From contig JBHIFL010000083.1 of the NCBI GenBank assembly GCA_046761065.1, positions 1 to 17,257 of the forward strand: 17,257 bases of DNA, given 5' to 3'. The stretch comes from Candidatus Heimdallarchaeota archaeon (GTDB taxonomy: Archaea > Asgardarchaeota > Wukongarchaeia > Wukongarchaeales > JBHIFL01). Shown piece by piece: positions 836 to 17,046 of this stretch. The notes under the pieces were generated by a model. The model ran no database searches. It had not been told where the DNA came from and saw nothing but the letters and a program-made list of their open reading frames with translations. The position numbers and the translations under genes were made by a program. Numbering within the stretch: the stretch's first letter is position 1; every line of letters starts with the position of its first letter.

Positions 836-1004
836 AAAGATGAGCTCCAAAATCTTGCATTTCGATTGTTGCTTTAGGGATCATAAATATATCTTACCAT
901 ATCCTTTTCATAAAAGAGCGTGTTCTAGTGATAGAATGGTATTTGCACTTCCCGTGTTTGTTTATTGGCACCTTGTCCTTATCATAGGAAAAATCATTTA
1001 TCAT

Positions 1005-1526
1005 TTAAGGTAAATCATTTTTTCGCTTTCTTAAAGAATTTAAGCATAATTGAAGGAATTTATTCAGGTTTAGACCTATTTCCTTGCATTTTAGTAAGTT
1101 GGTGATATGCCATGGCTGCCTAGTAGAGGTTTTTTCAAGTTCTGCACGAATGATTGCGACACCTACTTCTGCCGGGGGAATACCGGATCTTTCTATCAGA
1201 ACTACCAAAGAATCAGTTGCTAGCAATGCCTTATCAAGCTGGCTGTGAGAAATAAATCCTGTTCGATAATCATGAGCCTTTATGGCATAAAGACAGTTCT
1301 CAGGAAGTTTGCTCTTCAATCTCTCAGAAGAAACAATACCATGCTGTTCCATATTATCCCTTACATCATCATAATCTAAATCATGCAACAACCCGACAAG
1401 CTCCCATTCTCTCTCATCCTTGCCGAGATATCTTGCTAACTCGCCCATCATTCTAGAGACAATTATTGCATGAGCATACTTACTTGTATTCTTGATGGGT
1501 TGAAGAGCTTCCTCTCGAGATATCAC
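1005..1526 (-). CDS. HD/HDIG-domain metal-dependent phosphohydrolase (COG2316-like)
   Basis: Shows SREEAL..., H...V...M..LA..LG.D..EW.L.GLLHDLDY, HG, AIKAH and a conserved D (ATD). The start is likely GTG 1526, preceded by GAGG. The 64 codons upstream in the ORF track translate a terminator/poly-T intergenic region. Confidence 0.85.
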   Translation of the reverse strand: MISREEALQPIKNTSKYAHAIIVSRMMGELARYLGKDEREWELVGLLHDLDYDDVRDNMEQHGIVSSERLKSKLPENCLYAIKAHDYRTGFISHSQLDKALLATDSLVVLIERSGIPPAEVGVAIIRAELEKTSTRQPWHITNLLKCKEIGLNLNKFLQLCLNSLRKRKNDLP

Positions 1527-1615
1527 ACATTTCCTCTCATATAAAATTATTATTGAAAAATTCCCTTTCTTGTAAGGGAGATACAAGTAAACTGTTTTTC
1601 GCACTTGGTACATTC

Positions 1616-1644
1616 TTTTAATCAATAGAAAAAATTGATTAAAA
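1616..1644. promoter_or_regulatory. Perfect 11-bp inverted repeat (candidate operator or hairpin)
   Basis: TTTTAATCAAT-agaaaaa-ATTGATTAAAA, about 90 bp upstream of the HD gene start. Confidence 0.45.
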
Positions 1645-1667
1645 TTCTTTAGATTGTTCTGATTACT

Positions 1668-1712
1668 AAAAAAAGAAGAAAAAAAGAAGAAGAGAGACGG
1701 AATGGCTCTCTT
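1668..1712 (-). terminator. Hairpin plus long oligo-U terminator of the surface-protein gene
   Basis: On the minus strand, AAGAGAG-N9-CTCTCTT overlaps the stop codon and is followed directly by a ~22-nt C/T-only, T-rich tract. Confidence 0.7.
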
Positions 1713-4317
1713 ATACAAGGTGCTTCTTTCGAGTCATCAATAGCAATCCAAAGACACTCAGTGCCATTACTACATCCAATAACGTGAATCCTGGAACAAA
1801 GAAAGCGGCTTCCTGCTCCAACTCACTTGGGGGGACGTTTTCCGTAATACCGTTGTCTGTTACTATTATACTGTCTACTTTAGCTTCTTCGCCATCCATT
1901 CCAATTGCAATTACTACAATCAAATGTTCACCGTCTGCTCGCGTTGTACTATCCCAGGTAAATGAATACTCATCAGTCTCTTTCTGCTCCATTGGATATC
2001 CCAGCCCATCTATAGTAAGTGAGACAAATTGTAAACCCATGGGATCATATACCTTGGCCAAAATAGTGACTTCCCCTGAAACCGTGTCCCCTTTGAGAGG
2101 TTCTATAATTTCTATCATTGGAGGCTTGTTATCATCTGCTAAGTTATCCACTTCCACACTAACTTCCGCTTTTGCCCGATGTCCTGCATTGTCTAAAGCA
2201 GAAACGCGTAGATTGTACGTCCCATCTCCACCCAGCTTGGTCGTGTCCCACATCGCCGTCCAACGCTCATTATCTTGTTTCTCAAGGTTCAATTCTGTCC
2301 AATCAATCAAGAGGTATTTACTGCCAATTTCGAGTCTTACTGAATCATCTCGCACTCCACTTTCTGGATCGCGAATCATAATTTCGATTTCAATCGTTCC
2401 AGAAACCCGATCACCTTGAATTGGATATTGAAAATCGATTTCCGGCGCTCGGATATCGGTTCCTTCCTTGATAAAATCAAATTCAAAGAGCACACCAAAT
2501 TCCGTGAGTTCAACGGACTCGTTAAATAGTTGGAGCTCAAATTGATTTTTAGGAATGCCTTCGTCTTCCCATTCATTATGCCAAACATCATAACCCTGGC
2601 CCCATTTGTCCTTGTTAGGAGTAACATCGAGAACCCGACCGGGAACTTCAATGCGGAAGTGAGAACTGTCTACTTCTGGTAGTTTTCGGAGAGGAGCGTA
2701 GCCATTCAATGCATTCTGTGTCGAGATATAATTCTCACCTGGGCTGAAATACTGTTCTAGCCACCAATCCACGCCAATCCCCTTCTCAGGTAACCGAGAA
2801 GGTGCTTCGAAATGTATGTTATTCTCGATGTGAGGGGCACTCCCGAAGTCAATATGGTTATATAATGCACTCTTTGAGATTAATTCAGGTTTCTTTGCCC
2901 GTTCTATAATAATGTTCCAGTCCACCCAGCCATAGTAGTGAACATGTAAGCCGCCATCCCAAAAGTCTTCATTACCCAAGTGGAACTCGACATCTAAGTC
3001 AACTCCATAAGCTGCTGCAATCGCATCGGCAATTGAACTATACTCAGGGTCATCGGATACAAAATCTATATCTAAGAAGATATTGGGCTCTTGCCGGATT
3101 ACCTGCGCCGCCAACGACGTGTTCGAAGAAATTGGGGCTTCTACCAGTTGTTCTTTGGGACCTTCTACTCGCAAATGTAAATTCTCAACAAACTCATAGA
3201 GTGGGTCATTCTCATAGTCTATGGTTTGTGTTAAGGATGCACTTGGATCTGCTAACCCCATCCGTACCTCTAGGTTTCCAAAGGGATCAACGCTCATTTC
3301 AGCATGTTCGTGAGTCTGTAATGCCCGGGGGACAAATTGATAGTCGAAGCGAACCCTGAAGCTATCGAAAGAAACCATTGGATCACGTATATCCAAGTTA
3401 ACTCCATGTCGCCAAGCGTTTTGCCAACCTTCATACCAACGATCTTCGTGGACCGCATAGCCCCCATAATCACCTATTGGAGGCTCTGTCGAGAGAATGT
3501 CAACATCTGGCAGGTTGAAGCTGTACCATGAGTCCTCCGAGTATTCACTTCGCTCTATTCTTGCTAAGTGAAGGAGGTTCTCCATCACAAGTTCGTGTCC
3601 TCCTTCAAGCTCCGAAATAAAACTATTGAAACCCACTCCAATCTGTTCGAAGAACTGGTCATCCCCAACGGAGAACGAGTCCCCTTGATGATGCTGAATT
3701 TCGAACCACGCCTCATCTGCGCCAGTCACATCAATATTCGCAGCGATACCTCCCATCTCACGAGGCAGACTATTCTCCAGCTCATTCACAAACCAAGGAA
3801 AGTCGATGTGCGCGCTATAGTAAACTCGAACCATGTCTACATCGTCATAAACATTCTGAGGATCACGTTCTTCAACCCAGGTCTCTGATCCCCGGAACTC
3901 GAAAGTCACTAATAGTCTAGAGTTTATTTGGTGCATTATTTGATTGGCAAATTCTTCTGCAGCCACCGGATCCTTTAACTCGAAATTCACATCTACCCAG
4001 GTGTTCTCTTCATTCGGATCCCGGCTTTCTTTGGCATTTGTTCGTAGCCATCTAAAAGCTATCCATTCGTTTCCAGAAAAGTCAAGAGAGGTCTTTGACC
4101 AATGCACTCCAATGCCTTCTACTGAAGCCCAAGACCAAATATGTCCCTCTCGCTCTACTCGAACTTCTGCAGATTCTCGATAGTAGTCTGAAGGCTGACT
4201 GAGACCTAATGATTTGTCTAAACAGCGTTCTGATCGTGCTACATGTGTTGGAAACATTACCAGTCCAATGGCAAGGACTACTATTACAACTCTTATATAA
4301 AATCGTGTCAAATCCAA
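1711..4317 (-). CDS. Secreted cell-surface protein: signal peptide, two tandem ~285-aa unknown domains, two Ig-like domains, PGF-CTERM-like anchor
   Basis: N-terminal basic plus hydrophobic signal (RFYIRVVIVVLAIGLVMFPTHVA) and an acidic mature region. Two D..PP.I....P..GD.VSG...WD.T...DG.Y/H.L Ig-like repeats. C-terminus is VPGF + transmembrane helix + RKK. The TTG start is uncertain by a couple of codons. Confidence 0.85.
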   Translation of the reverse strand: MDLTRFYIRVVIVVLAIGLVMFPTHVARSERCLDKSLGLSQPSDYYRESAEVRVEREGHIWSWASVEGIGVHWSKTSLDFSGNEWIAFRWLRTNAKESRDPNEENTWVDVNFELKDPVAAEEFANQIMHQINSRLLVTFEFRGSETWVEERDPQNVYDDVDMVRVYYSAHIDFPWFVNELENSLPREMGGIAANIDVTGADEAWFEIQHHQGDSFSVGDDQFFEQIGVGFNSFISELEGGHELVMENLLHLARIERSEYSEDSWYSFNLPDVDILSTEPPIGDYGGYAVHEDRWYEGWQNAWRHGVNLDIRDPMVSFDSFRVRFDYQFVPRALQTHEHAEMSVDPFGNLEVRMGLADPSASLTQTIDYENDPLYEFVENLHLRVEGPKEQLVEAPISSNTSLAAQVIRQEPNIFLDIDFVSDDPEYSSIADAIAAAYGVDLDVEFHLGNEDFWDGGLHVHYYGWVDWNIIIERAKKPELISKSALYNHIDFGSAPHIENNIHFEAPSRLPEKGIGVDWWLEQYFSPGENYISTQNALNGYAPLRKLPEVDSSHFRIEVPGRVLDVTPNKDKWGQGYDVWHNEWEDEGIPKNQFELQLFNESVELTEFGVLFEFDFIKEGTDIRAPEIDFQYPIQGDRVSGTIEIEIMIRDPESGVRDDSVRLEIGSKYLLIDWTELNLEKQDNERWTAMWDTTKLGGDGTYNLRVSALDNAGHRAKAEVSVEVDNLADDNKPPMIEIIEPLKGDTVSGEVTILAKVYDPMGLQFVSLTIDGLGYPMEQKETDEYSFTWDSTTRADGEHLIVVIAIGMDGEEAKVDSIIVTDNGITENVPPSELEQEAAFFVPGFTLLDVVMALSVFGLLLMTRKKHLV

Positions 4318-4682: not shown

Positions 4683-5843
4683 TTATTCCTCGGTTTTCGG
4701 CTTAGGTAGTACCGCCTTGAACAATGCTTCGTCTACTAGTTTCCCTTGAGCAAGCAGTTGGCGAAACTTGATAAAGTCAATTGTGTCCTTTCCCGTGAGT
4801 TTTCGCGTGTTGAACGCATGAAACCCTAGAAAGGCTTCATAGTTCATATTGACTGCTAACCAGTGCCGATTGTAATTCTTCGTAGCATCCCAGAAGAACT
4901 TTTTCTTCGCTCGAACACTATCCATTGCTTTCATCAAACACCCGGGGAAGAGGTTCGCAAAAGTCCAAACTATTTTGTTTACCTCTTTATCCAGCAACTC
5001 AAAGCTGATCTTATCCTGGTCTCTTGCTTCTTTGATGTAGGCTTGAGCCGCCTTGAATTTTTCCCCTGTTTTGAACTCGCCATAGACTATTTCACCATCG
5101 TCCACATACTTCTCTATGACGACCGACGGATTGCGAACCCATTCGTCTCCATCCTTGATCACTGGCACGACTTTGGTTAAATACCCTAGACGCTTCATCT
5201 TATAGGCACTCCACATCTCACAGGAGACACAATTCCACATGGCATCTTCAATTGACAGATACCACGGCAAGAAGTCAGAGGATCCCCCATCGGGAGAAGA
5301 CCCGTGTCTGGGGCCCGCTTGGCCAAAAATTGCCAGGTCGGAAGTGACCGCCAAATCGCAAGCCATCCCGATTTCTTGCCCACCAGCTACCCGCATTCCG
5401 TTCACTCGGTTAATCACGGGCTTCTTGCACATGAGAATAGAATCCACCAATTTTATGAAGAGCTCCATGTATTCTCCGTATTCATTGGGACGACTGGTAT
5501 AGTATTCGGCGTATTCTTTGGTGTTTCCACCGGTGCAGAACGCGACTGACCCAGTACCAGTAAAAATAACCGCCACGACACTGCGATCTAGAGAGGCATT
5601 TTCAAATCCGGCGATGGCCCCTTTGCACATTTCAGTTGTATAGCTGTTATATTGCCGAGGGTTGTCTAGGATAATCCAAGTGACATAGAGATCTTCGATG
5701 ATGTTACCTTCAGGATCTGTCAATGGACGTTTTTCATATATCGTGCGGGGAGCGGTACTACCCCAGTGCTGCGTGCCATGGAGATCGTTATGCGTCTTAA
5801 GTTCGAGATCTCGCGTTAACCAATCCAATCTCACATTTTTCAC
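4683..5843 (-). CDS. bamA: 6-oxocyclohex-1-ene-1-carbonyl-CoA hydrolase (ring-opening hydrolase of the benzoyl-CoA pathway)
   Basis: Family-diagnostic stretches: YEKRP, WIILDNPRQYNSYTTEM, AFCTGGNTKEYAEYY, KPVINRVNGMRVAGGQEIGMACD, GQAGPRHGSSPDGG, CEMWSAYK, FPGCL, WLAVNM..EA.LGF.AFN, DFIKFRQLLA. Length 386 aa; GTG start. Confidence 0.95.
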   Translation of the reverse strand: MKNVRLDWLTRDLELKTHNDLHGTQHWGSTAPRTIYEKRPLTDPEGNIIEDLYVTWIILDNPRQYNSYTTEMCKGAIAGFENASLDRSVVAVIFTGTGSVAFCTGGNTKEYAEYYTSRPNEYGEYMELFIKLVDSILMCKKPVINRVNGMRVAGGQEIGMACDLAVTSDLAIFGQAGPRHGSSPDGGSSDFLPWYLSIEDAMWNCVSCEMWSAYKMKRLGYLTKVVPVIKDGDEWVRNPSVVIEKYVDDGEIVYGEFKTGEKFKAAQAYIKEARDQDKISFELLDKEVNKIVWTFANLFPGCLMKAMDSVRAKKKFFWDATKNYNRHWLAVNMNYEAFLGFHAFNTRKLTGKDTIDFIKFRQLLAQGKLVDEALFKAVLPKPKTEE

Positions 5844-5892
5844 GATCCCTTTCTTTTTCAGTGGTTTCTGTTTAGTGCCTATTTTGTGTTTT

Positions 5893-5907
5893 TCGATTTA
5901 TAATCGA
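5893..5907. promoter_or_regulatory. Palindrome overlapping the putative bamA TATA box
   Basis: TCGATT-TAT-AATCGA. The minus strand reads TTATAAAT within it, about 50 bp upstream of the bamA start. Confidence 0.45.
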
Positions 5908-6101
5908 GATTAGTTATTTATTTCCAATTTATTAGGATTTGCGATTTAATTAAGAGAGATTTGGGATTATGGCGAATGATTTCTTTTCCGTAGATGGAAG
6001 AAAGAATCCTTTAAGTGGACATAGTGTTTTAAGACTAATAAACACTTTTCCAGTTAATAACATATAATGGAAACACCGATGATTTAGGAGATATTGTACT
6101 G

Positions 6102-6950
6102 ATGAAAATTAAAGTTGTGGATTTCCACGTCCATGCATTGAGCTCAGAAGCGGATTGGCATCCTTGGGTTGTGTCATATGGTTTTGATATGAATCCTACC
6201 CTACAAACGATGTTAATAGAGGTCACAACCCCTACCGGTCTTTGGACGTACTTATCTGAACAAGGAATTGACTTAGCAGTAATCCTCGCCGAAGATTCGC
6301 CCGTAACGACTACTGCGAAGCGAGGAACCGAAATTAATGAGTTTATTGCAAAAATATGTTCGCAAAACCCGGATAAAATGATTCCATTCTGCTCGGTTAA
6401 TCCGAAAACAGTTGCAAGGCCTGCAAAGGAACTCCAGCGCCTTGTCGAGGACTTGGGTTTTAAAGGATTAAAGCTTTATCCACCATATCAGTTGTATTAC
6501 CCAAATGATCAAGAGATCTATCCACTATATGCGAAAGCTGAAGAACTAGGCATTCCAGTCATGGTTCATACGGGTAGTAGTGTATTTCGAGGGGCTCGCT
6601 TGAAATATGGTGATCCCCTCTATTTAGATGATGTGGCAGTTGATTTCCCCGATCTTAAGCTGCTTCAAGTTCACTCGGGTCGAGGATTCTGGTACGACCA
6701 GGCATTCTTTCTTGCAAAACTACATAAAAATGTGTATCTTGAAATCGCTGGATTGCCCCCTCAAAATCTATTAAAATACTTCCCAAAGCTCGAAAAACTT
6801 GCAGACAAATTTATTTTTGGTTCCGACTGGCCAGGTGTTCCCAGTATAAAGAAGAACATTAAGATAATCAGAGAATTGCCTCTCAGTTCAGAAACAAAAC
6901 GGAAAATTCTTGGGCAAAATGCGTTGAGGATCCTAAAGAGTGTCTTATAA
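6102..6950 (+). CDS. Amidohydrolase_2 family metal-dependent hydrolase/decarboxylase
   Basis: Motifs DFHVH, GFKGLKLYP, IPVMVHTG, DDVAVDFPDL...H.G and FIFGSDWP. AGGAG Shine-Dalgarno upstream. Confidence 0.92.
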   Translation: MKIKVVDFHVHALSSEADWHPWVVSYGFDMNPTLQTMLIEVTTPTGLWTYLSEQGIDLAVILAEDSPVTTTAKRGTEINEFIAKICSQNPDKMIPFCSVNPKTVARPAKELQRLVEDLGFKGLKLYPPYQLYYPNDQEIYPLYAKAEELGIPVMVHTGSSVFRGARLKYGDPLYLDDVAVDFPDLKLLQVHSGRGFWYDQAFFLAKLHKNVYLEIAGLPPQNLLKYFPKLEKLADKFIFGSDWPGVPSIKKNIKIIRELPLSSETKRKILGQNALRILKSVL

Positions 6951-6978
6951 ATGAGGTACCCCTGCCAAATCATTTATC

Positions 6979-6989
6979 GCTTTTTTTAA
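6979..6989 (+). terminator. Oligo-T tract between convergent genes
   Basis: T7 run about 30 nt after the amidohydrolase stop codon. Confidence 0.4.
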
Positions 6990-7004
6990 CATGCTGAAAG
7001 GGCA

Positions 7005-7448
7005 TTAATCTCGTGTGTCAGGTGAGTTTGTGGGTCTTTCAACATAAACTAAGGCTTCGGTAGGACATTGTTGAGTACAAAGGGGGTGCTCCTCATTCCG
7101 GCATTGATCACATTGAACGGCTACTTTCTGCTCCATATCAGCTGCTATTGCTCCGTAGGGGCACGCCATGATACAAGTCCAGCATCCAACGCACTTCCTA
7201 AAATCATTAAACACAACTTCCTTCTGTAAATCTTTCTGCAATGAGCCCGTCAAACATGCATCAATGCAAGGTGAATCCTCACACTGTCGACATATCGCTT
7301 GCCACTCATATCGGCCAAAAGGATCGCGATGTATCGTGATCCCGCTAGCCCAAGGTTTTGATTCTCCAAACTTACTTATCGAACACACCATAGAACAAAT
7401 TTTACACCCTGTACATAATTCCGATCTAGCGTAAATCTGTTTAACCAT
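7005..7448 (-). CDS. 4x[4Fe-4S] electron-transfer subunit (DmsB/HycB-like), small subunit of the AOR-family complex
   Basis: Cys groups CTGCKICSMVC, CRQCEDSPCIDAC, CVGCWTCIMACP and CDQC...PLCTQQCP. Lies 16 bp downstream of the AOR gene. Confidence 0.92.
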   Translation of the reverse strand: MVKQIYARSELCTGCKICSMVCSISKFGESKPWASGITIHRDPFGRYEWQAICRQCEDSPCIDACLTGSLQKDLQKEVVFNDFRKCVGCWTCIMACPYGAIAADMEQKVAVQCDQCRNEEHPLCTQQCPTEALVYVERPTNSPDTRD

Positions 7449-7464
7449 CTTTATTCTCTCTCTT

Positions 7465-9312
7465 TTACCATAGTGACTCCGATGAAGTTGGACGCCCTTC
7501 TTGATCCCACCCTCTTAGAGCGTAATAGCGGGATAACATCCTTTGAAATTCTGTTCGGTCGATATGGTGGCCCTTAGCTAAGCGTAACGGCATAGGGTCA
7601 TCGAAATAGCGCTTCGGTAACGTATCATCTTTCCGAGAGACACCTAGCTTCACATTTATTCTTCGTTCAAGTTCAACTATTCGTTTCCCGACTTCTTGCA
7701 ACTCGTCTTCCGTATATTCGAAGCCTGTCACTAAGCGAATCAATTCTGCAAAGTGTTCATATCCTAATAATCGCGGGGAATTAAAACCGCGGCAAAGAAA
7801 CTTGCAAAGGCCCAAGGAGTCTATGACGGCATGGATATTCTCTTGCCCATAGACGATGTGTTCCTTTGTCGAATATTCTATTGGGGATGGATTGATGTGC
7901 GTACCATAGAGATCCTCATAGATCTCTGGAGGGAGATCGAGAATATCTAGCGTTGGACGTGAACGGAGATGGTCAGCTCCTCGTGAGGAGGTTGCAATGC
8001 CGAGGGCAAAACTTTTGATGTAACGACAATCATGAGGATCAGATTGTGGGAGCCCTTTTATCGCAATAAGGTAGTCTATAGCATCTTCTCCAAAGATTTT
8101 TGTTGCTTCTATGCTATTAGCTAAAATGTTTCCAAAACCCTCTCGCTTAGAGATGTCTATCATGAGCTGTTTTGCAAGCTCGGAATTTCCAAACTCTAAA
8201 TAGATCCCCCCTGTCACCTTTTCGTCTATCAACCCTCGCTCAAATAGCTCGATAGCCCAACCAATGATAGTGCCAGTAGACGCTACATCCAAACCAAGCT
8301 CATTGGCTAAATTGTTAAGTTTAATTACCTCTGTAGTTGAGGAAATCCCAAGATTGGCACCTAAAAGGCCTATTGTGGTGTATTCCGGGCCTTCACCACC
8401 AAACACATTCCTATGTCGGCAATGCACCAGACACCCGTGACAAGAGAGCATTTTCATTACATAATTATGAATCACTTCAGCATCAAGGGTGTCTTCAAAT
8501 GCGTTCAGTTGACTGTTTTTCGTCCTGATAGCGCCTAAATAGTTGCTAACTTCATAAAGGAGTGGTGTTCCAACGCGTCCAAGCACCTGAACTATTTTTG
8601 ATTGGGCGAGATATTTGTTTATTTCCATGAGTCGCATTAAAAATTCTTTTGGGGACTTAATGGGGATACCAAGGGTTCCACTTGCTACAATAGCTTTGAG
8701 GTTCTTTGATCCCATAATGGTACCTATCCCACATCGTCCTGCGGCATTCTTAACACCATTAATGACTGTTGCAAAACGTACAAGATTCTCTCCGGCTGGA
8801 CCAATACACGCCACTTCGATATGGTGTCCCAACTCCTTTCTGAGCGCAAGCTGTGTTTCTCGAGTATTCAACCCCCAATAATCTTTTACGTCTCTAATCT
8901 CGACCCTTCCATTTTTTAAAAACAGATATGAAGGAGAATCGGCTTTTCCAAGAATCACCAGGCGATCTATGCCTGCATATCTCATCTCGGCAGGGAAGAA
9001 TCCCCCCATGTTCGTATCTCCCAGAATCCTACTCTCTGGCGACTTTGTGGTGATATTGATTCGAGAACAGTTCGGAGCTCCGGTCCCTGTCAGAAGTCCC
9101 GTACCAAAAATGAGTGGATTAGTCGGGGAAAGAGGATCCACTTCCGGCTTCAGGAACTCGTGGAGATAATACATATTAACTCCTCTCCCACCAAGCAGGG
9201 CTTTAACCACATTTTTAGGGGTATAGGTGGTCTTCGATGTTTTATTAGTAAGATCGACAACTGTTACGTTGCTACGCCAGAATTTACGATCTTTCTCTTC
9301 GTTTTTCATCAT
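7465..9312 (-). CDS. aor: Tungstopterin aldehyde:ferredoxin oxidoreductase (AOR/WOR) family catalytic subunit
   Basis: VDL, LGGRG, NPLIFGTGLLTG, KSP, GGFFPAEMRYAG, IGPAGENLV, AAGRCGIGTIMGSKNLKAI, CxxCxxxC (CHGCLVHC), ELGLD, RGADH, DSLGLC, DDTLPKR and YYALRGWD. The family call is secure; the substrate is unknown. Confidence 0.93.
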   Translation of the reverse strand: MMKNEEKDRKFWRSNVTVVDLTNKTSKTTYTPKNVVKALLGGRGVNMYYLHEFLKPEVDPLSPTNPLIFGTGLLTGTGAPNCSRINITTKSPESRILGDTNMGGFFPAEMRYAGIDRLVILGKADSPSYLFLKNGRVEIRDVKDYWGLNTRETQLALRKELGHHIEVACIGPAGENLVRFATVINGVKNAAGRCGIGTIMGSKNLKAIVASGTLGIPIKSPKEFLMRLMEINKYLAQSKIVQVLGRVGTPLLYEVSNYLGAIRTKNSQLNAFEDTLDAEVIHNYVMKMLSCHGCLVHCRHRNVFGGEGPEYTTIGLLGANLGISSTTEVIKLNNLANELGLDVASTGTIIGWAIELFERGLIDEKVTGGIYLEFGNSELAKQLMIDISKREGFGNILANSIEATKIFGEDAIDYLIAIKGLPQSDPHDCRYIKSFALGIATSSRGADHLRSRPTLDILDLPPEIYEDLYGTHINPSPIEYSTKEHIVYGQENIHAVIDSLGLCKFLCRGFNSPRLLGYEHFAELIRLVTGFEYTEDELQEVGKRIVELERRINVKLGVSRKDDTLPKRYFDDPMPLRLAKGHHIDRTEFQRMLSRYYALRGWDQEGRPTSSESLW

Positions 9313-9350
9313 AATTATGCTCCTAACCCATAATAAATTTCCCTTTCCTC

Positions 9351-10727
9351 CTATGCCTCGCCGAGTTCTTTTTTTCGCCAGCGTTCCTCATCGATCTTCT
9401 TCTTATACTTCTTCTCCATTCCAATGGTTTTTCTCCAAACCACATAACCAGGAGGACCTTCCATCTCAGATTGGAAAAGTTTATGCCTCAGATGCGCAAA
9501 AAACTGACCTCTTTCTGCAAGATACTCTGCTGCTGTTCCTAATATTGTGCCATTTTTGATTAGATTTGTGAGAATACCGCCTTGGGTGATGTCTCCAACA
9601 AGAATGGCTCCAAGGAGTGTTCCATCTCCATCCTTAATTAGCAACTTTTCATAAATTCCCTCCTTTTCCGAGTGAAGCCCTACAATTTCATGGCATGATG
9701 CTCGAGGGCATGAGATGGCTCCTATAGAAATCCAAGGGATTCCAAAGTATCTCATCGCGACCATAGCTATCCCTCCCTTGTACTCTCTTTTAACTCCAGC
9801 TAAGTTCATTCCAGCAATCCGACCCTGTTCGCGAGCATTACCAAGATTCGCTACCATTCGGTTCTCCCGGTAGACCAGATCATACGGTTGGGCGGCATCT
9901 CCGGCGGCGTACACATTCGGGACAGACGTCCGAAGATAATGATCAACAAGAACCCCCGATGCGGTGCGGATTCCAGAATCTTTCAAGAAATTAATAGCAG
10001 GTCGTACTCCAGTACACATAACCACAAGTGTACTAGGAATCTGTCGTCCATCGTCAAGGATAACACCAGTAACACCTCTTCCCTTTTCATCTCCACGAAT
10101 TTCTTGTATTTCCCGCCCAGTTAAGACGATAAGCTCTTTTTTTTCCATATACCTTTGGACGATCCGCGCTGCGGTGGTGTCTAGATTTTGGGTTAAAATT
10201 TGGTTAAGAAGCTCCACCACAACAACTTTAAGGCCCCGTGTAGAAAGCGCGTGTGCTGCACTCAGACCCACAAGTCCAGCACCTACCACAACCGCGGTTT
10301 CAGCTCTCTTTGCCCTGTTGGCTATTTGTTGAGCATCATTAAGGGTCCAAAAGGAATAAACTCCTTCTCTTTGGAGACCCGGGATATTAGGACAGGTTGG
10401 GGTAGACCCTGTAGCGATTAAGAGGCGATCGTAACTTATATTTTGGCCATTACTCAAATGAACCACTTGATTTTCGCTATCAATACTAACAGCTTCAAGA
10501 CCATCTAATTTCGATATTTTCTTCTCTTTGTAAAATGTTTCAGGACGATAGAGGATCTCTTCATAGGTTTTCTCGCCCGACAGGTATTCTGCAATCAAAG
10601 GGCGCGAATATGGGGCGGTCCAAGCCTCTTTTGAAACAAGTGTTATGGTACTCGTTTTATCAATCTGCCTGAAAGACTCAATAGCTGCTATGGCCGCTGT
10701 GGAGTTGCCCAGAACAACGAGATCCAT
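9351..10727 (-). CDS. FAD-dependent pyridine nucleotide-disulfide oxidoreductase family protein (NirB/rubredoxin-reductase-like; putative NAD-coupling subunit of the AOR complex)
   Basis: Degenerate FAD motif VVLGNSTAA, PYSRPLI, YDRLLIATGS, NAD motif VVVGAGLVG...VVE, TGVRP and TSVPNVYAAGD. Confidence 0.9.
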   Translation of the reverse strand: MDLVVLGNSTAAIAAIESFRQIDKTSTITLVSKEAWTAPYSRPLIAEYLSGEKTYEEILYRPETFYKEKKISKLDGLEAVSIDSENQVVHLSNGQNISYDRLLIATGSTPTCPNIPGLQREGVYSFWTLNDAQQIANRAKRAETAVVVGAGLVGLSAAHALSTRGLKVVVVELLNQILTQNLDTTAARIVQRYMEKKELIVLTGREIQEIRGDEKGRGVTGVILDDGRQIPSTLVVMCTGVRPAINFLKDSGIRTASGVLVDHYLRTSVPNVYAAGDAAQPYDLVYRENRMVANLGNAREQGRIAGMNLAGVKREYKGGIAMVAMRYFGIPWISIGAISCPRASCHEIVGLHSEKEGIYEKLLIKDGDGTLLGAILVGDITQGGILTNLIKNGTILGTAAEYLAERGQFFAHLRHKLFQSEMEGPPGYVVWRKTIGMEKKYKKKIDEERWRKKELGEA

Positions 10728-10844
10728 GGTTAATGCCTGTAGAAATAGTTCTTTTTAAGTTCTTCACTTTCTCTATAAGAACCCAAATAATGCTCAATAA
10801 TATTTGCGAATATTGATAATGATCGCTTATAGAATACTTTCTGT

Positions 10845-11228
10845 TTACTTTTCTTCAATTAACTTATAGAGACTTGTTGATCCTCTTTCCTTAGGAATTA
10901 TGCAAAGGAAAACGAAGGGCTCTGTATCACTCTTGTTCTTGAAACCGTGGATCTCGTTACTCTCGATATATACAAAATCACCCGGTCCGACTGTTTTTTC
11001 TCCATCTTTCCCAATCACCGCTCCCTGCCCTTCCAGAATGTACATTTCATGCTCATGGGAATGCTGGTGTAGTGGGATCGTCGCATTGGGCTCAAAATCA
11101 TAGCGGCGCAATAAAGAGTTTTTCCCCACATCATCACCAATTAACCATCGAATCTTAGCCCCCTTCGTACCAGGGAGAAGATGATCTATTGTTTCTAATT
11201 TTACATCCTTGTAGTTGCCTATGATCAT
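10845..11228 (-). CDS. Cupin domain protein (cupin_2)
   Basis: PLHQHSHEHEMYILEGQG and GPGDFVYIESNEIHGFKN, the two metal-binding cupin motifs. GAGG Shine-Dalgarno upstream. Confidence 0.92.
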   Translation of the reverse strand: MIIGNYKDVKLETIDHLLPGTKGAKIRWLIGDDVGKNSLLRRYDFEPNATIPLHQHSHEHEMYILEGQGAVIGKDGEKTVGPGDFVYIESNEIHGFKNKSDTEPFVFLCIIPKERGSTSLYKLIEEK

Positions 11229-11457
11229 GATTTTACCTCAATTCCGTTTTATTTTAAGAAATCATTCTTATGTATAGCCTAATAAGATTGTCGTAAGGTA
11301 ATTTTATTTTCACTCGAGTTCCTCTTTGAAAAATCGGTCTAGATACATTGAAATATTCCAATAATCATCCTAACCATTAACCTTGAAGGATCAAACTCCA
11401 TTAAAGAAGCTGTTTCCGAAAGATTTTGAATTTAAAATGCGTCATGAAAGTGTATTG

Positions 11458-11469
11458 AGAGGTGAGGTT
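11458..11469 (+). promoter_or_regulatory. Archaeal-type Shine-Dalgarno
   Basis: AGAGGTGAGG just upstream of ATG 11475. A similar AAGGTGA precedes ATG 13202. Confidence 0.65.
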
Positions 11470-11474
11470 GAAAA

Positions 11475-12251
11475 ATGAAGTATAAGGAAATTCTCCTCCA
11501 ACGGGATAATCAAGTAGCGACACTCATTCTGAATCGACCCGAAAAGCGAAATGCGTTATCTTTATGTCTCCTCGAGGAACTTATTATTGCTTTACAGGAC
11601 TTCTATGTCGATAAGGAAACACGTGTCGTGGTAATCAAAGGAGCGGGACCATGCTTTAGCGCAGGACATGATCTGTCTGAGATGATCAACAAAGATATTC
11701 TTCATTACAAGAAGATCTTTGAGACATGCTCTAAAATGATGAAATTACTTCAACAAATTCCACAGCCAACCATTGCACAAGTTCACGGGGTTGCAATGGC
11801 TGCAGGTTGTCAATTAGTTGCCGCATGTGACCTAGCTATTGCTGCAGAAGGAACTCGCTTCAGTACGCCAGGTGTAAGGATCGGTTTGTTCTGTATTACC
11901 CCAAGTGTACCACTGAGTAGAGCCATCGGAAGAAAACGAGCTCTAGAAATGTTGTTTACTGGGGATTTTATTAATGCAAAAGAAGCATACGAGTACGGTC
12001 TTATAAACCGTGTTGTCCCTCCAGCTCAACTGGAAGCTGCCACCCAAGAATTAACCACAGCGATCGTACGTTCGAGTCCCATGGCTATCAGTATCGGTAA
12101 ACAAGCTTTCTATACGCAGATTAATATGCCTGATGATCAGGCTTATGACTTTGCCACAAACACTATTGCTCTCAATCTTGCTACGTATGATGCACAAGAA
12201 GGCATTTCGGCTTTTCTTGAAAAGAGAACCCCAAAATGGAAAGGAAAATAA
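11475..12251 (+). CDS. Enoyl-CoA hydratase/isomerase (crotonase) family protein, ECHDC3-like subgroup
   Basis: LNRPEKRNALS, FSAGHDL, PQPTIAQVHG.A.AAGCQLVAACDLA, FSTPGVRIGLFC.TP.V.LSR.IGRKRALEMLFTG and EGISAFLEKR.P.W. Confidence 0.92.
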   Translation: MKYKEILLQRDNQVATLILNRPEKRNALSLCLLEELIIALQDFYVDKETRVVVIKGAGPCFSAGHDLSEMINKDILHYKKIFETCSKMMKLLQQIPQPTIAQVHGVAMAAGCQLVAACDLAIAAEGTRFSTPGVRIGLFCITPSVPLSRAIGRKRALEMLFTGDFINAKEAYEYGLINRVVPPAQLEAATQELTTAIVRSSPMAISIGKQAFYTQINMPDDQAYDFATNTIALNLATYDAQEGISAFLEKRTPKWKGK

Positions 12252-12323
12252 CAATATTAGATTAATTGTAATTCCTATACTATTCAAGTATAGGAGCTTT
12301 CTTGTAAAGGCCGGTTGTAGAAA

Positions 12324-13085
12324 TTGAGTTTCTATGATCTTTCAAAAGAAGAACGAGAAAAGACCGTGAAAGAGATAAAACAAGTGATCGAACACGATTT
12401 GAGGTGCGGTATCGTAGAGAATATTTTGAAATATGCGGCCGACCACGATACTTACATACGGAAGAATACCTACATCATACTAGGATGCCTTTATCGTGAT
12501 AGGCAAGATATGAGAGAAAGCATTTTAAGTGTATTAGATGCCTTATTTGTTAATAAAGACGAAAAAGTGAGACAGACTGTTGTTTATGCACTTGGGGAGA
12601 TTGGGAAAATCGATGCTCAGAAGGTTTTAAAGCTATTTGAGAAAGCCTTAGAAGATGAACAGCCATCAGTGGGAAGAGCAGTAACTGGAGCTTTAAAACA
12701 AATGGGACAAAAGAATCCAACCTCTACATTGGAATTTGCGAAACGGTTTTTACATCATCCTGATCCGAAAATTCGCCGGAAAATCATCCATGGGATTGAA
12801 CTCCACGGACGAACTCATCCTGAAGACATTTTACCTCTTTTAACAGAAGTTCAAAACGATCCCAATAGAGACGTAAGGAAAATAATTACCCATGTGATTA
12901 GCCAAATAAGCTATAAAAAGGGTTGTTTAGAAAAAGTGATTTCCACGTTAAAGGGTTGGGAGAACAAAGAATTAGTAGAGAAGGCTTTAAAGGAGATTTT
13001 AGAAGTCCATAAGCGCTATGAAAAATTTAGTGCAAAATCCTTCGATAAGGCAAAAGAGTACATAGAACACCAATTTAACACATAA
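12324..13085 (+). CDS. HEAT-repeat protein (DNA alkylation repair AlkD/AlkC-like or PBS-lyase-like solenoid)
   Basis: Repeating helical units: D..EKVRQ....ALGEIG, D....V.RAV..AL..MG, HPDPKIRR..I.GI and DPNRDVRK. TTG start. Confidence 0.75.
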   Translation: MSFYDLSKEEREKTVKEIKQVIEHDLRCGIVENILKYAADHDTYIRKNTYIILGCLYRDRQDMRESILSVLDALFVNKDEKVRQTVVYALGEIGKIDAQKVLKLFEKALEDEQPSVGRAVTGALKQMGQKNPTSTLEFAKRFLHHPDPKIRRKIIHGIELHGRTHPEDILPLLTEVQNDPNRDVRKIITHVISQISYKKGCLEKVISTLKGWENKELVEKALKEILEVHKRYEKFSAKSFDKAKEYIEHQFNT

Positions 13086-13086
13086 C

Positions 13087-13151
13087 GATAGGAACCGGCA
13101 TTTTTATCAATTCCAAGAACAATAAGCTATTTATGAACATGAGTTCCTATC
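13087..13151. repeat. 9-bp perfect inverted repeat bracketing a 47-nt AT-rich spacer
   Basis: GATAGGAAC (13087-13095) and GTTCCTATC (13143-13151). Confidence 0.5.
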
Positions 13152-13201
13152 TTCAAAATCTGGAAAATGATCACATTCACAATTAGGATAGTGGAAGGTG
13201 A

Positions 13202-14368
13202 ATGAAACAGCTTCAGGTCGCTAAAAGGTCGACAAATATCCCATCAAGTGGCATTCGACGGATGTACAACATTGCCACGCAGATGAAAGAAAAAGACATG
13301 ATCTGGCTTGTCATCGGAGAACCCGACTTTCCGACACCCGTTCATATTATTAATGCGGGCAAAGAAGCACTAAACTCGGGGTTTACACATTATACCCATA
13401 ACTTGGGTTTACTTGAGCTAAGGGAAGCAATTGCGCGTAAGCTCAAGCGTGAGAATGGAATTGAAACAAATCCTGAAACAGAAATTATCGCAACAACGGG
13501 GGCACAAGGCGCCTTAATCATGACCCTTTTTATAATCCTCGAAGAAGGAGATGAAATATTAGTTCCACGCCCTTGTTTTGCTAGCTACGAGGCGCAAATC
13601 AAGCTGGCAAATGCGATCCTAGTTCCTATTTCTCTAAAAGAAGATGAATTCAACTTGGATATCGAATTAATCAAAGAAAAGATTACTCCCCAAACAAAGG
13701 CTCTACTGATTAATTCCCCTTGTAATCCAACAGGTGCGATGTGTTCGGAAGCGGTTCTCAAAGCTATTGCAGATTTGGCCGAAGACCATGGGATTTTCAT
13801 TATCAAAGACAACCCGTATGAGAAGATCGTATATGATAGAAAGCATGTTAGTATTGCTCCCATGGCTAAAGATCAAACGATCTCGATCTTTTCTTTTTCA
13901 AAAAGCTATGCCATGGCCGGGTGGCGGATTGGGTATGCTACTGCAAATGAAGAGATCATCCGAGAAATGCAAAAAATGCACGAGCATTTTTGTATTCACC
14001 CGAGCAGTGTCTCCCAGAAGGCGGCAATAGCAGCCCTTGACGGTTCACAAGAGTGTGTGGAATCAATGGTACAAACCTATAAGGAAAGGCGCTCCGTTAT
14101 TGTGAATGGGCTGAACAAGATTCCAGGAATCTCTTGTATTGCACCCCATGGGACTTTTTATGTTTTCCCTAACATTAAAGCGCTAGGACGTTCTTCGCAG
14201 GAGCTTGCCGAGTATTTGCTTAGAGCAGGTCATGTTGTGACTGTTCCAGGAACCGCCTTTGGACCGGAGGGAGAAGGACATCTCCGTATTTCCTATTCTG
14301 CTTCGATGGAAGCTATTAAAGAGGCGCTTTCCCGGATCCAAAAGGCGGTTTTACGCTTAAGTCAGTAG
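13202..14368 (+). CDS. PLP-dependent class I/II aminotransferase (aspartate/aromatic aminotransferase-like)
   Basis: IGEPDFPTP, THYT...GL.ELREAIA, NSPCNPTG, D.PY, SFSKSYAMAGWRIG (PLP lysine), G.FYVFP, VPGTAFG..GEGHLRISY. Confidence 0.95.
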   Translation: MKQLQVAKRSTNIPSSGIRRMYNIATQMKEKDMIWLVIGEPDFPTPVHIINAGKEALNSGFTHYTHNLGLLELREAIARKLKRENGIETNPETEIIATTGAQGALIMTLFIILEEGDEILVPRPCFASYEAQIKLANAILVPISLKEDEFNLDIELIKEKITPQTKALLINSPCNPTGAMCSEAVLKAIADLAEDHGIFIIKDNPYEKIVYDRKHVSIAPMAKDQTISIFSFSKSYAMAGWRIGYATANEEIIREMQKMHEHFCIHPSSVSQKAAIAALDGSQECVESMVQTYKERRSVIVNGLNKIPGISCIAPHGTFYVFPNIKALGRSSQELAEYLLRAGHVVTVPGTAFGPEGEGHLRISYSASMEAIKEALSRIQKAVLRLSQ

Positions 14369-14429
14369 AATACATCCTCTGTATCCAACTGAGGTATTGA
14401 TCAAAAAAACATATTCTACCGTCTTTACT

Positions 14430-15647
14430 TTATTTGACTTTGCCTATAATTGCTTTTAAGTCGTCATCAGAAAGGGTAGATTTTCTTTTCACAGCCTCCA
14501 CCTTAACTAGTTCAATAACTTTATTTATTTCATCTTCGGTAAGGTTAAGGCCTAATATATTTAAATTGTGTATAATAGAATCGCGGCCACTTTTCTTTCC
14601 ATACATAATCTCCACTCCTTTCTGACCAACCAAATCCCAGCGGTATGGGTACATCACTAAAGGCATGTTTGCTTCTTTAACTCGTAACCACCAGCCCACG
14701 ACTATGCCTGACTCCATTGCAAAAGCATTATCTCCGACAATCGCTTTATGGGGAGGCATCTTTATGCCTGAAAGCTTTTCAACCAGTTTTGATAACTCAT
14801 AAAGTTTTGTATAATCTAGTCCAAGTTGAAATCCATAAAGGGCTTCAAGGGCCAGCGCTACCTCCGCCAAATCGGCATTCCCCATCCTTTCACCGATGCC
14901 ATTAACAGTTGTGTGGACGATTTCTGCGCCTTCGCATACCGCTGCAAGGGTGTTTGCTGTTGCTAACCCAAAATCATTGTGGAAATGGGCCTCAATTGGC
15001 TTGTTCAATTCATCACGAGCTTTTTTGGTGAAGAACCGGGTTGCCTCGGGTGAACAGACTCCAAACGTATCGACAAGAGCTAATGAGTCCATATGGCCTT
15101 CCGTTGCGACATTGTTTATTATTTTGATCCACCAATCAAGGTCTGCCCTGGTTGAATCGATTGTGAAGAAGGTTACGTGTAAACCATGGTCCGCAGCATA
15201 CTTTGTAGCTTCGATAGATAAGTCAATAGCCTTTTCAAGTGGCCATTTATATGCATGCTTTATAATATGTTTGCTGGAGGGAATCTCCGTTACCACCCCA
15301 TCAACATCACATTCTAAAGCTAAATCCACATCTGCTTTCATACATCGACAAAATGCAAAGATTTTTGCGTTTAAGCCATCATTTGCAATATCTTTCACTG
15401 CATCTTTATCTTCTTTAGAGATCGCTGGCATTCCAGCTTCGATACGAGGAACTCCTAGCGCATCGAGCTGTCTTGCAATTTTGAGTTTGTCTTCCTTATT
15501 AAATACCAAACCCGCTTGTTGCTCACCATCCCTCAATGTAATATCGTGAATCGCGACATCTTTTGGCAGGTTTAAGCCTGCTCGTACTTCATCATCAAAA
15601 TTGTGTTGACTTACCCACCACTTATCAGTTAACCATTGTTTTCGCAT
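14430..15647 (-). CDS. LeuA/homocitrate-synthase-like DRE-TIM metallolyase without a regulatory domain
   Basis: HDITLRDGEQQAG, IEAG.P, DTFG, HFHNDFGLATAN.LAA, TVNGIGERMGNA, K.IVGDNAF and GKKSG. At 405 aa it has no C-terminal allosteric domain. Confidence 0.88.
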   Translation of the reverse strand: MRKQWLTDKWWVSQHNFDDEVRAGLNLPKDVAIHDITLRDGEQQAGLVFNKEDKLKIARQLDALGVPRIEAGMPAISKEDKDAVKDIANDGLNAKIFAFCRCMKADVDLALECDVDGVVTEIPSSKHIIKHAYKWPLEKAIDLSIEATKYAADHGLHVTFFTIDSTRADLDWWIKIINNVATEGHMDSLALVDTFGVCSPEATRFFTKKARDELNKPIEAHFHNDFGLATANTLAAVCEGAEIVHTTVNGIGERMGNADLAEVALALEALYGFQLGLDYTKLYELSKLVEKLSGIKMPPHKAIVGDNAFAMESGIVVGWWLRVKEANMPLVMYPYRWDLVGQKGVEIMYGKKSGRDSIIHNLNILGLNLTEDEINKVIELVKVEAVKRKSTLSDDDLKAIIGKVK

Positions 15648-15840: not shown

Positions 15841-17046
15841 ATGATACACCAGCAAAAGTTAGTTCTTATCGGGGTAACTTTCGCCCATTCACTTTCTCAC
15901 GCATTTGTGATGACATTTCCTGCCCTTTTACCTTTTATTCAAGAGAGTTTCGTCCTCACATCATATACAGAATTGGGGCTCCTACCAGGGATTCTCTTAG
16001 TTACTTATGGCTTAACGACATTTCCAAGTGGAATTTTATCAGATGCGGTAGGAATTACTCGTGTTTTGACTGTGTACTTGGTTATTTTAGCAATTTGTTC
16101 TTTTATGTTGCTTGTTGTAACAACGTTTACTGTGCTTCTTGTTCTTGTGGGAGTAATTGGCCTTACTGCTGGGTTATATCATCCTCCTGGCCTATCGTTA
16201 ATTTCCCAATCATTCTCATCAGACGATCTGGGCAAATTTTTTGGAGCACATGGCATATCTGGTAATATAGGTGTCGCGATTGCCCCCGGTATAGCAGTAT
16301 TTATAGCGAGTACAAAATATGGTTGGCAATATGCTCTCCTACCGTTTGGTCTGTTCTCACTTTTTGCGATCCCCCTTTTTCTAGCCCTCCCTCTTCAACC
16401 AGAAAGTACTAGCCATCATCAAAATCGTTCTAAACTGATAAACTCTCTTGACTCACAATTTGATGCTGAAAATCCTCCAGTTATCTACATCCACCCATTG
16501 ATTGTTATATTTGCAATTAGTACTCTAGTGGGCTTAATTGACCGTGGTTTGATCTCATTTTTAGCTGTTTACTTAGTAGATGCCCGTTATTATACACATG
16601 CGACTGCCGGTTTTATAATTTCGGGGATCTTTTTAATTGCAATAACTAGTCAGATCGCTTTTGGGATGTTCGCAGATTCTATTGGCCCAATGACCGCGTT
16701 TCGAATCGCAGCTATAGTTATTACACTTTTCTTTTTTCTGATACCGTTCGTTCCTGGGACTGTACTCCTAATTGTTTTGACCATTGCAGCTTTTGCCATC
16801 ACAGGGACCCAACCACCCCTTAACATCCTAACAACAAGTGTCAGCCCCTTAGAAAAAAGAGGCACCATTTTTGGATTCCAGTTTACTGCGGTTTTTGGGT
16901 TTGGAGGGATCGCAGGCTTTCTTGCAGGAATAATTGCGTCATTATTTGGACTTGAAGTAATTTATCTTGTTCTTAGTGGCTTTGGCGCATTACTTTTGAT
17001 CCTACTCCTAATATACCCCCGGTGGGCACCTACTCCAACTTATTAG
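15841..17046 (+). CDS. MFS transporter
   Basis: About 12 hydrophobic segments, motif A variants G.LSDAVG and G.FADSIG, GLYHPPG, and a hydrophilic central loop. Confidence 0.92.
   Translation: MIHQQKLVLIGVTFAHSLSHAFVMTFPALLPFIQESFVLTSYTELGLLPGILLVTYGLTTFPSGILSDAVGITRVLTVYLVILAICSFMLLVVTTFTVLLVLVGVIGLTAGLYHPPGLSLISQSFSSDDLGKFFGAHGISGNIGVAIAPGIAVFIASTKYGWQYALLPFGLFSLFAIPLFLALPLQPESTSHHQNRSKLINSLDSQFDAENPPVIYIHPLIVIFAISTLVGLIDRGLISFLAVYLVDARYYTHATAGFIISGIFLIAITSQIAFGMFADSIGPMTAFRIAAIVITLFFFLIPFVPGTVLLIVLTIAAFAITGTQPPLNILTTSVSPLEKRGTIFGFQFTAVFGFGGIAGFLAGIIASLFGLEVIYLVLSGFGALLLILLLIYPRWAPTPTY

Follow-up and report, generated by a model that had tools for sequence, protein, structure and literature searches.

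The window analysed here is the whole of contig C83 (17,257 bp) of G000, a metagenome-assembled genome (MAG) of Candidatus Heimdallarchaeota (4.42 Mb, 234 contigs, 91.5% completeness, 8.2% contamination). On it, a gene for BamA (Oah), the predicted ring-opening hydrolase of the benzoyl-coenzyme A (benzoyl-CoA) pathway, is located 1.2 kb downstream of an operon for a putative three-subunit tungsten aldehyde oxidoreductase (AOR). The explanation that we favour, with confidence a little better than even, is that this enzyme, linked to nicotinamide adenine dinucleotide (NAD), would oxidize aromatic or other aldehydes, and that the resulting acids would feed a class I benzoyl-CoA pathway whose BamA was acquired horizontally. 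A first-pass annotation had proposed an archaeal aromatic-catabolism neighbourhood at this position, and all the genes it named were found where it had placed them, with strong family matches.

Genes were called from the open reading frame listing together with Pfam and NCBIfam scans of the window. The genes for the flavin adenine dinucleotide (FAD), AOR and iron-sulphur (FeS) subunits (7005-10727, minus strand) are referred to as the trio, C-numbers denote contigs of G000, and L-numbers denote the loci compared. The central features are as follows.

4683-5843, minus strand: BamA/Oah (TIGR03200, 522.8 bits against a cut-off of 464.45)
6102-6950, plus strand: metal-dependent hydrolase or decarboxylase of the Amidohydro_2 family, ACMSD/LigW superfamily (PF04909, 142.8 bits)
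7005-7448, minus strand: AorA/WorS-like polyferredoxin subunit with 16 Cys (Fer4_11)
7465-9312, minus strand: catalytic subunit of a tungsten (molybdopterin) AOR (AFOR_N 243 bits, AFOR_C 344 bits)
9351-10727, minus strand: AorC-like subunit binding FAD and NAD(P), encoded by the leading gene of the trio (Pyr_redox_2 198 bits, with Rubredoxin_C)

The BamA score was above the cut-off of the curated equivalog model, as the first-pass annotation would have it, with the match extending over model positions 9-359 of 360 and the next family reaching 98 bits. The best matches in the PDB were MenB-type crotonases (79 bits). By the curated model, the protein is identified as a genuine ring-opening hydrolase. 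It is the only copy in the genome, and its gene is probably monocistronic.

The trio genes lie on one strand in the order FAD, AOR, FeS, separated by gaps of 38 nt (FAD-AOR) and 16 nt (AOR-FeS). In comparisons with the PDB, the AOR subunit scored highest with Pyrococcus AOR (1aor, 377 bits) and WorL of Acetomicrobium (9mqx_D, 358 bits), followed by AorB of Aromatoleum (8c0z_A, 277 bits). The match to BamB (4z3w, 209 bits), whose alignment covers only residues 16-414, was the weakest of nine AOR-family matches; the subunit was therefore rejected as a BamB, the class II reductase subunit, and no BamD-I-like genes were found in the Pfam and NCBIfam scans of the window. The AOR subunit carries the motifs CxxCxxxC (291-298) and DxxGLC (498-503), which we take to be the [4Fe-4S] cysteines and the pterin-binding motif of the family, at positions as in Pyrococcus AOR. 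The best match for the FAD subunit was AorC (8c0z_E, 182 bits), and the same protein was PadH-like below the cut-off (301 against 475 bits). The FeS subunit matched WorS best (9mqx_E, 107.7 bits) and also AorA (8c0z_C, 63.7 bits); its 16 Cys would be enough for four [4Fe-4S] clusters. Family scans of the window and of a contig from a sister sample found no ThiS/MoaD-like gene adjoining the trio. Judged by subunit homology, the trio is an AorABC-like three-subunit tungsten aldehyde oxidoreductase, encoded in a tight operon, and because of this likeness the NAD link that had been proposed for it is plausible. In the AOR tree, trio-type enzymes form one clade, apart from the widespread two-subunit pairs of AOR and FeS proteins.

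Other steps of the pathway were sought in the rest of the genome. A class I benzoyl-CoA reductase, for which the first-pass annotation had suggested a search, is encoded on C13 (36597-40761), with BzdN at 495.1 bits (cut-off 453.8), BzdO at 682.6 (448.6) and BzdQ at 418.6 (380.2). The locus also contains a second activase-type subunit, and C13 further carries a BzdV-like FeS/flavin protein of 831 aa and an IorA-like protein (571 bits against a cut-off of 651). The best candidate for Had is a gene on C23 (17412-18440, match 17433-18434), for which TIGR03201 was the top model; its score of 278 bits lies below the cut-off of 338.65. It is 82% identical to a zinc-dependent alcohol dehydrogenase (Zn-ADH) located 2.8 kb from BamA in L173. 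Around it, the region C23:6531-19515 (L091) was seen to encode an HGD-D (2-hydroxyacyl-CoA dehydratase/BcrB-like) protein, an activase, an acyl-CoA ligase, a branched-chain-type ABC transporter and an ApbA-like reductase, in addition to the Had-like Zn-dehydrogenase. On C13, just downstream of bzdQ, a relic (41284-41442, minus strand) retains the last 53 codons of an aminotransferase, with no intact upstream part; it is 72% (amino acids) and 74% (nucleotides) identical to the aminotransferase of the window (13202-14368). Such a relic may point to an earlier rearrangement that connected the bzd region with the neighbourhood in the window.

From these parts, the host would degrade aromatic acids anaerobically through an ATP-dependent class I Bzd-type benzoyl-CoA pathway. 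The trio would oxidize aromatic (or other) aldehydes at its tungsten site, and the FeS wire would carry the electrons to FAD, from which they would reach NAD+. The aromatic acids formed would be activated with CoA and dearomatized by BzdNOPQ (C13), and the product would be hydrated and then oxidized by the Had-like dehydrogenase (C23). BamA would open the ring to give 3-hydroxypimelyl-CoA. Enzymes of beta-oxidation would follow, for example those encoded immediately to the left of the window on C81, where two CoA-transferase subunits, a DUF35 protein, a thiolase and an acyl-CoA synthetase were observed. These genes could serve the lower part of the pathway, which resembles beta-oxidation, but they are unspecific.

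Phylogenetic analysis placed BamA apart from its neighbours in origin. The window BamA, its orthologue in L167 (93% identical) and the copy in L168 nest together inside a Bathyarchaeia clade (identity 82-84%), next to BamAs of Thermodesulfobacteriota, with support of 100/96 in the careful tree and SH-aLRT values of 98-99 in the quick tree. The BamAs of L172, L173 and 14 genomes of one Asgard genus, which is probably the published Hermodarchaeota, form a separate clade that groups with Anaerolineae. A single clade of the BamAs that lie next to orthologous trios was rejected by an approximately unbiased test (p = 5e-59), the group having been chosen once the tree was known. BamA alone is close to its Bathyarchaeia counterpart: the AOR beside the Bathyarchaeia BamA is 43% identical to that of the window, and the amidohydrolase at most 37%, values that rule out co-transfer of BamA with its neighbours from Bathyarchaeia. 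BamA itself would have been acquired from Bathyarchaeia by horizontal transfer.

The same tree raises the alternative that C83 is a mis-binned fragment, from Bathyarchaeia or elsewhere, and the 'Asgard' BamA an artefact of binning. The nesting of BamA in the Bathyarchaeia clade, at 82-83% identity, and the contamination of the bin (8.2%) would fit such an error. However, genes other than BamA are at most 44% identical to their counterparts in Bathyarchaeia loci, and the tetranucleotide profile of C83 lies at the genome centroid. The first 54 nt of C83 recur as an identical stretch of 53-55 nt at the ends of C43, C48, C103 and C1, the contig with the archaeal 16S gene. A 41.5-kb contig from the sister sample fuses C81:54 directly to C83:54 (99.9% identity) and continues into C114 on the other side; this junction places the same terminal stretch on C81 too. 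C114 encodes Alba, a Ras/Roc-type GTPase and the only arginyl-tRNA synthetase (ArgRS) detectable in the genome. A 371-kb scaffold and an NCBI MAG, the latter with Heimdallarchaeota as the label of its FAD-subunit record, share the gene order of the window at 79-93% identity. Because of the composition, the shared terminal repeat, the joins in the sister assembly and the presence of ArgRS and Alba on C114, mis-binning is very unlikely; the repeat shared with the 16S contig, the C81-C83-C114 join and the gene order of the 371-kb scaffold were taken to rule it out.

The host itself is, on the evidence of its marker sequences, a Heimdall/Hod-type Asgard archaeon. The small-subunit ribosomal RNA of the bin, on C1, scored 1335 bits with the archaeal model and 991 with the bacterial one; this result, together with Alba and the sole ArgRS just past the contig end, bears out the earlier assignment of the DNA to an archaeon. 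Two eukaryote-type actins are encoded in the genome (Pfam Actin, 454 and 445 bits), for which none of four archaeal control genomes gave a match, and the submitters of the closest homologues of the FAD subunit (81-83% identity) labelled them Candidatus Hodarchaeota or Heimdallarchaeota. In scans of the window, sigma-70-like promoter matches were at chance level (23, against 25.3 in shuffles), as were counts of bacterial terminators. Archaeal TATA-like boxes near -30 were seen for the cupin and FAD genes only; they were judged by eye and are weak evidence. Among species representatives, G000 is the sole genome of its family. The two genomes of the same order (G001 and G002) are about half its size, with weak ArgRS matches to the C-terminal part only, and BamA, a close AOR homologue and DNA similarity to the window were all not found in them; informative relatives of the window came only through the protein database search.

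Two further observations concern the terminal repeat and C1. The sister assembly lacks the repeat element and shows an 8-bp overlap at the C83:54/C81:54 join. This pattern suggests that the repeat is a mobile element present in several copies, whose ends are inverted over at least 53 nt and whose insertion, in this population alone, duplicated 8 bp of the target. On C1, the archaeal 16S match (440-2273, minus strand) spans 1834 nt on a model of 1478 positions; some 350 nt of the gene are therefore inserted sequence, which may be an intron.

Conservation of the neighbourhood was assessed at two evolutionary distances. Three related assemblies, namely the 371-kb scaffold, the NCBI MAG and another Logan contig, were collinear with the window for the MFS, LeuA-like, aminotransferase, enoyl-CoA hydratase (ECH), cupin, FAD, AOR, FeS, amidohydrolase, BamA and Big_7 genes, and the L167 proteins compared were 79-93% identical to those of the window. 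In the two long contigs among them, collinearity extends to Alba, ArgRS and a DNA methyltransferase. Since housekeeping genes are collinear too, gene order in close relatives reflects recent common ancestry and not selection for clustering. The test of synteny that the first-pass annotation had recommended was thus uninformative at this distance, while the association of BamA with the trio recurred in two more distant Asgard-labelled MAGs. L172 comes from a second MAG that carries the label Heimdallarchaeota on its FAD-subunit record. Here BamA (561 bits) adjoins the FAD-AOR-FeS genes in divergent orientation, and the AOR and FeS products are 66% and 58% identical to those of the window. The L172 trio is followed by ApbA-like and HGD-D genes, whose orthologues in G000 lie on C23, the contig of the Had-like gene. 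In L173, from a third MAG, a block encoding 3-hydroxyacyl-CoA dehydrogenase, thiolase, BamA, DUF35-SDR (SDR, short-chain dehydrogenase/reductase), thiolase, Zn-ADH and ECH lies 6 kb from the FAD-AOR genes, with an AOR 67% identical to that of the window. A further contig, P0010, compared at the protein level only, showed an L172-like layout with an ECH protein of BamA length in the BamA position.

The association is also seen in a looser form. Among species-representative genomes, 19 of the best 80 BamA loci had an AOR-family gene within 10 kb of BamA, a count made without a formal background comparison and from lineages that are not all independent. Fifteen of the 19 AORs were 37-44% identical to that of the window and belonged to two-subunit pair loci (L010-L015, L047, L053, L056, L057, L061, L066, L082, L076 and L086). 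Such pairs of AOR-type and FeS proteins occur near BamA in Bathyarchaeia, Syntrophia-like Thermodesulfobacteriota and Anaerolineae. The two examples checked against the PDB, L011 and L047, were AOR-type and not BamB, and the label 'BamB-like' that had been considered for deltaproteobacterial AORs near BamA was wrong, L047 being of AOR type. In three genomes of the other Asgard BamA genus, an AOR lies 7-8 kb from BamA.

A number of points weigh against the favoured explanation. Two genes by which the first-pass annotation had proposed to recognize the pathway gave no match above cut-off in the genome: the best score for Dch (TIGR03189) was 107 bits against 292.5, and that for benzoate-CoA ligase (TIGR02262) 275 against 375. 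The Had candidate, too, falls short of its cut-off. Completeness of the MAG is 91% and contamination 8%; membership of C13 rests on composition and the relic paralogue, and that of C23 on composition and orthology to Asgard-labelled loci. The AOR subunit matches the broad-spectrum AOR of Pyrococcus (377 bits) more closely than it does AorB (277), so that the substrate of the trio cannot be read from its sequence. Gene order in close relatives, as noted, is uninformative. BamA and the trio are split by a gene on the opposite strand and therefore do not form one operon. Finally, AORs of the trio clade are also present in Asgard families without a detected BamA (f12, 0/19; f14, 0/12; and f22) and in a Peptococcaceae locus without BamA, which indicates that the trio has roles outside the pathway. 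As to Dch, the ECH of the Bathyarchaeia cluster likewise fell under its cut-off (147 bits), and the context of the best Dch-like gene of G000, on C16, was uninformative.

Some of these points would be expected if the neighbourhood were coincidental, with BamA having landed by horizontal transfer beside a general-purpose aldehyde oxidoreductase to which it has no functional tie. The AOR would then serve peptide or amino-acid fermentation, detoxifying aldehydes from 2-oxoacid oxidoreductases. Such a history would fit the separate transcription units on both strands, the trio-clade AORs in Asgard families where no BamA was found, the Bathyarchaeia-like origin of BamA alone (AOR 43%, amidohydrolase at most 37%) and the inclusion of ArgRS and Alba in close-relative synteny; G000 also has at least five further AOR paralogues. 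It fits poorly with the orthologous trio lying beside, or within 6 kb of, a BamA of a different clade in two more Asgard-labelled MAGs, in differing arrangements, which is hard to obtain by chance, and with the AOR and FeS pairs near BamA in 15 of the best 80 BamA loci. We therefore regard coincidence as unlikely, though it deserves serious weight.

Oxidation of aldehydes for the class I pathway is thus preferred, and the recurrence bears on how closely the trio may be bound to that pathway. BamAs of two origins lie beside the same enzyme; therefore, either BamA was displaced in place or the genes were independently recruited to the trio. Because these BamAs of independent origin adjoin the same orthologous FAD-AOR-FeS operon, we tentatively consider that an AOR-type tungsten enzyme may be a selected, integral module of the benzoyl-CoA pathway in the Heimdall group of Asgard archaea and likewise, as a two-subunit enzyme, in Bathyarchaeia, Syntrophia-like bacteria and Anaerolineae, although we would not call this probable.

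A different role within the pathway was also considered, in which the trio would not be a peripheral funnel and would instead couple a low-potential pair (aldehyde/acid or ferredoxin) to NAD(H), for example by supplying reduced ferredoxin to the class I reductase or by running in the acid-reducing direction. Precedent exists in AorABC-type enzymes, which reduce acids and NAD+ with low-potential donors (PMC9295118), and in the related WorABCSL enzymes, which bifurcate electrons to ferredoxin and NAD (PMC12318220). In L172, moreover, the trio stands in one block with BamA, a BzdV-like protein of 848 aa and an HGD-D protein. Yet the trio has no bifurcating subunits of the BfuABC type as neighbours, C13 encodes a separate BzdV-like protein that is a candidate for regenerating ferredoxin, and the idea is purely inferential. 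This role is improbable, and oxidation of aldehydes to acids that enter the pathway is retained as the preferred function of the trio.

Comparison with known systems shows which parts of this arrangement are new. The first-pass annotation had named Ferroglobus placidus as the archaeon in which the pathway is characterized, a premise that is outdated. In the sections of Zhang et al. 2021 (PMC8163825) used here, Bcr, Dch, Had and Oah are reported in Hermodarchaeota MAGs, three of the 10 Bcr-bearing Asgard genomes are Heimdallarchaeota, and earlier reports of the pathway in Lokiarchaeota, Bathyarchaeota and Thermoplasmata are cited. An archaeal, even an Asgard, benzoyl-CoA pathway was thus already known from metagenomes, and it is the association of AOR with BamA that is modestly new. 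As in those Asgard sets, a class I reductase and pathway genes are assigned to an uncultured Asgard archaeon from a MAG. In contrast to them, as far as those sections describe them, the window BamA lies apart from the reductase cluster and beside a three-subunit AOR, whereas AORs there are treated as general aldehyde oxidizers. Its Bathyarchaeia type also sets it apart from the other Asgard clade, with its Anaerolineae-related BamA. By a full-text search, in which the sole match was a paper on Geobacter, the association of AOR-type enzymes with BamA was not widely discussed in the open literature, which is a weak negative.

The closest biochemical model for the trio is AorABC of Aromatoleum aromaticum (8c0z; PMC6365974, PMC10413684), which has the same FeS polyferredoxin, tungsten-pterin and FAD/NAD subunits, with homology for each. 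That enzyme prefers benzaldehyde and phenylacetaldehyde, reduces NAD+ (PMC6365974) and is linked to anaerobic aromatic (phenylalanine) metabolism (PMC6365974, PMC10413684). The trio differs from it in gene order (C-B-A, not A-B-C), in the lack of an adjacent MoaD/ThiS-like gene, in its archaeal host and in a tungsten subunit nearer to Pyrococcus AOR (377 against 277 bits), that is, to the 'archaeal' branch; in the Peptococcaceae relative L174, unlike in the window, ThiS is present. Arndt et al. 2019 assigned three-subunit enzymes to a bacterial AOR branch and homodimers to an archaeal one (PMC6365974), and an archaeal three-subunit lineage, as predicted here, would be a modest extension of that picture.

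Two other systems place an AOR-family tungsten subunit near bamA. In the bzd-bamA-had clusters of Bathyarchaeia (CP070835, L011), BamA is 82% identical to that of the window, BzdN/O are 59-61% identical to those of G000, and an AOR-type tungsten enzyme with an FeS subunit lies next to BamA. There, however, BamA, Had, ECH and BzdNOPQ stand together and the AOR, only 43% identical to that of the window, has no FAD partner, whereas in G000 the pathway is spread over at least three contigs. In BamB-I of Geobacter metallireducens (4z3w), a tungsten subunit of the AOR family and a small FeS partner are likewise encoded near bamA; unlike there, no BamDEFGHI-like genes adjoin the trio, and G000 has a class I reductase instead.

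The remaining features of the window are these.

1-54: terminal stretch of a multi-copy repeat resembling a mobile element; assembly break point, outside the catabolic cluster
53-850, minus strand: unknown protein
1005-1718, minus strand: HD-domain protein
1711-4317, minus strand: large Big_7 surface protein
10845-11228, minus strand: small Mn-type cupin, TM1459-like (Cupin_2, 64.9 bits)
11475-12251, plus strand: crotonase-family enoyl-CoA hydratase (PRK08139, 347 bits against a cut-off of 313)
12324-13085, plus strand: HEAT-repeat protein (HEAT_2, 73.8 bits)
13202-14368, plus strand: class I aminotransferase (Aminotran_1_2, 265.9 bits)
14430-15647, minus strand: short enzyme resembling LeuA, homocitrate and citramalate synthases (HMGL-like, 215.7 bits)
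15841-17046, plus strand: MFS transporter (MFS_1, 132.5 bits)

By gene layout, the transcription units are FAD-AOR-FeS, perhaps with the cupin (minus strand), the amidohydrolase (plus), BamA (minus), ECH-HEAT-aminotransferase (plus), LeuA (minus) and MFS (plus), so that the earlier description of several units on both strands was correct. The HEAT-repeat and MFS genes are additions to the earlier list of genes.

The amidohydrolase gene (6102-6950) diverges from BamA on one side and converges on the AOR operon on the other. Its best PDB match was the uncharacterized BB4693 (3irs, 72.5 bits), with weak matches to LigW, ACMSD and gamma-resorcylate decarboxylase. An Amidohydro_2 gene occupies the same position in L167, L168 and L169 (89% identical in L167), and no close homologue was found in Bathyarchaeia genomes. 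The cupin gene precedes the trio on the same strand; its product matched 5wsd/1vj2 (79 bits), and a cupin is retained beside the trio down to L171, whose FAD subunit is 63% identical. The amidohydrolase and the cupin may modify ring substituents. The crotonase at 11475-12251 was considered as Dch, but this was not supported: it scored 87 bits against the TIGR03189 cut-off of 292.5 and is not the orthologue of the ECH beside Had in L173 or L011.

The aminotransferase, LeuA-like, HEAT-repeat and MFS genes are most likely unrelated neighbours. Among solved structures, the aminotransferase was closest to the aromatic/aspartate aminotransferase of Pyrococcus (1dju/1gd9, 325 bits), and no NCBIfam equivalog scored above its cut-off. 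This likeness alone does not establish a route from phenylalanine, and the suggested funnel from phenylalanine through phenylacetate to benzoyl-CoA is not supported, because neither phenylacetate-CoA ligase (TIGR02155, best 20.8 bits against 646) nor the PadI equivalog of phenylglyoxylate dehydrogenase (NF045766, best 220 against 700) was found in the genome (PadBCD were not searched). The LeuA-like enzyme lacks the regulatory domain, scored below the LEU1_arch cut-off (365.8 against 484.75 bits) and is probably biosynthetic. No evidence was found for the proposed tie of these two genes to BamA, synteny being confined to close relatives in which ArgRS and Alba are also syntenic. Evidence of a tie to BamA was likewise absent for the HEAT and MFS genes. 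The HEAT-repeat gene is missing at the equivalent position in the related assemblies L167 and L168, and its product is probably unrelated to BamA.

The known picture of the benzoyl-CoA pathway itself is unchanged by these data. They place anaerobic degradation of aromatic rings in a Heimdall/Hod-type Asgard archaeon, a member of the closest prokaryotic relatives of eukaryotes, with a physical linkage of the BamA contig to its host that is better than binning alone. The ring-opening gene would here have come from Bathyarchaeia, whereas the BamA of other Asgard lineages belongs to a different clade. If the predicted assignment is right, the trio type of the window would be the first lineage of NAD-linked AORs with three subunits that is native to archaea. 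An AOR module integral to the pathway, if true, would provide an entry for aromatic aldehydes or a low-potential redox link, and its repeated placement near BamA in unrelated anaerobes is a testable hint that aromatic aldehydes, for example those derived from lignin, may enter the pathway.

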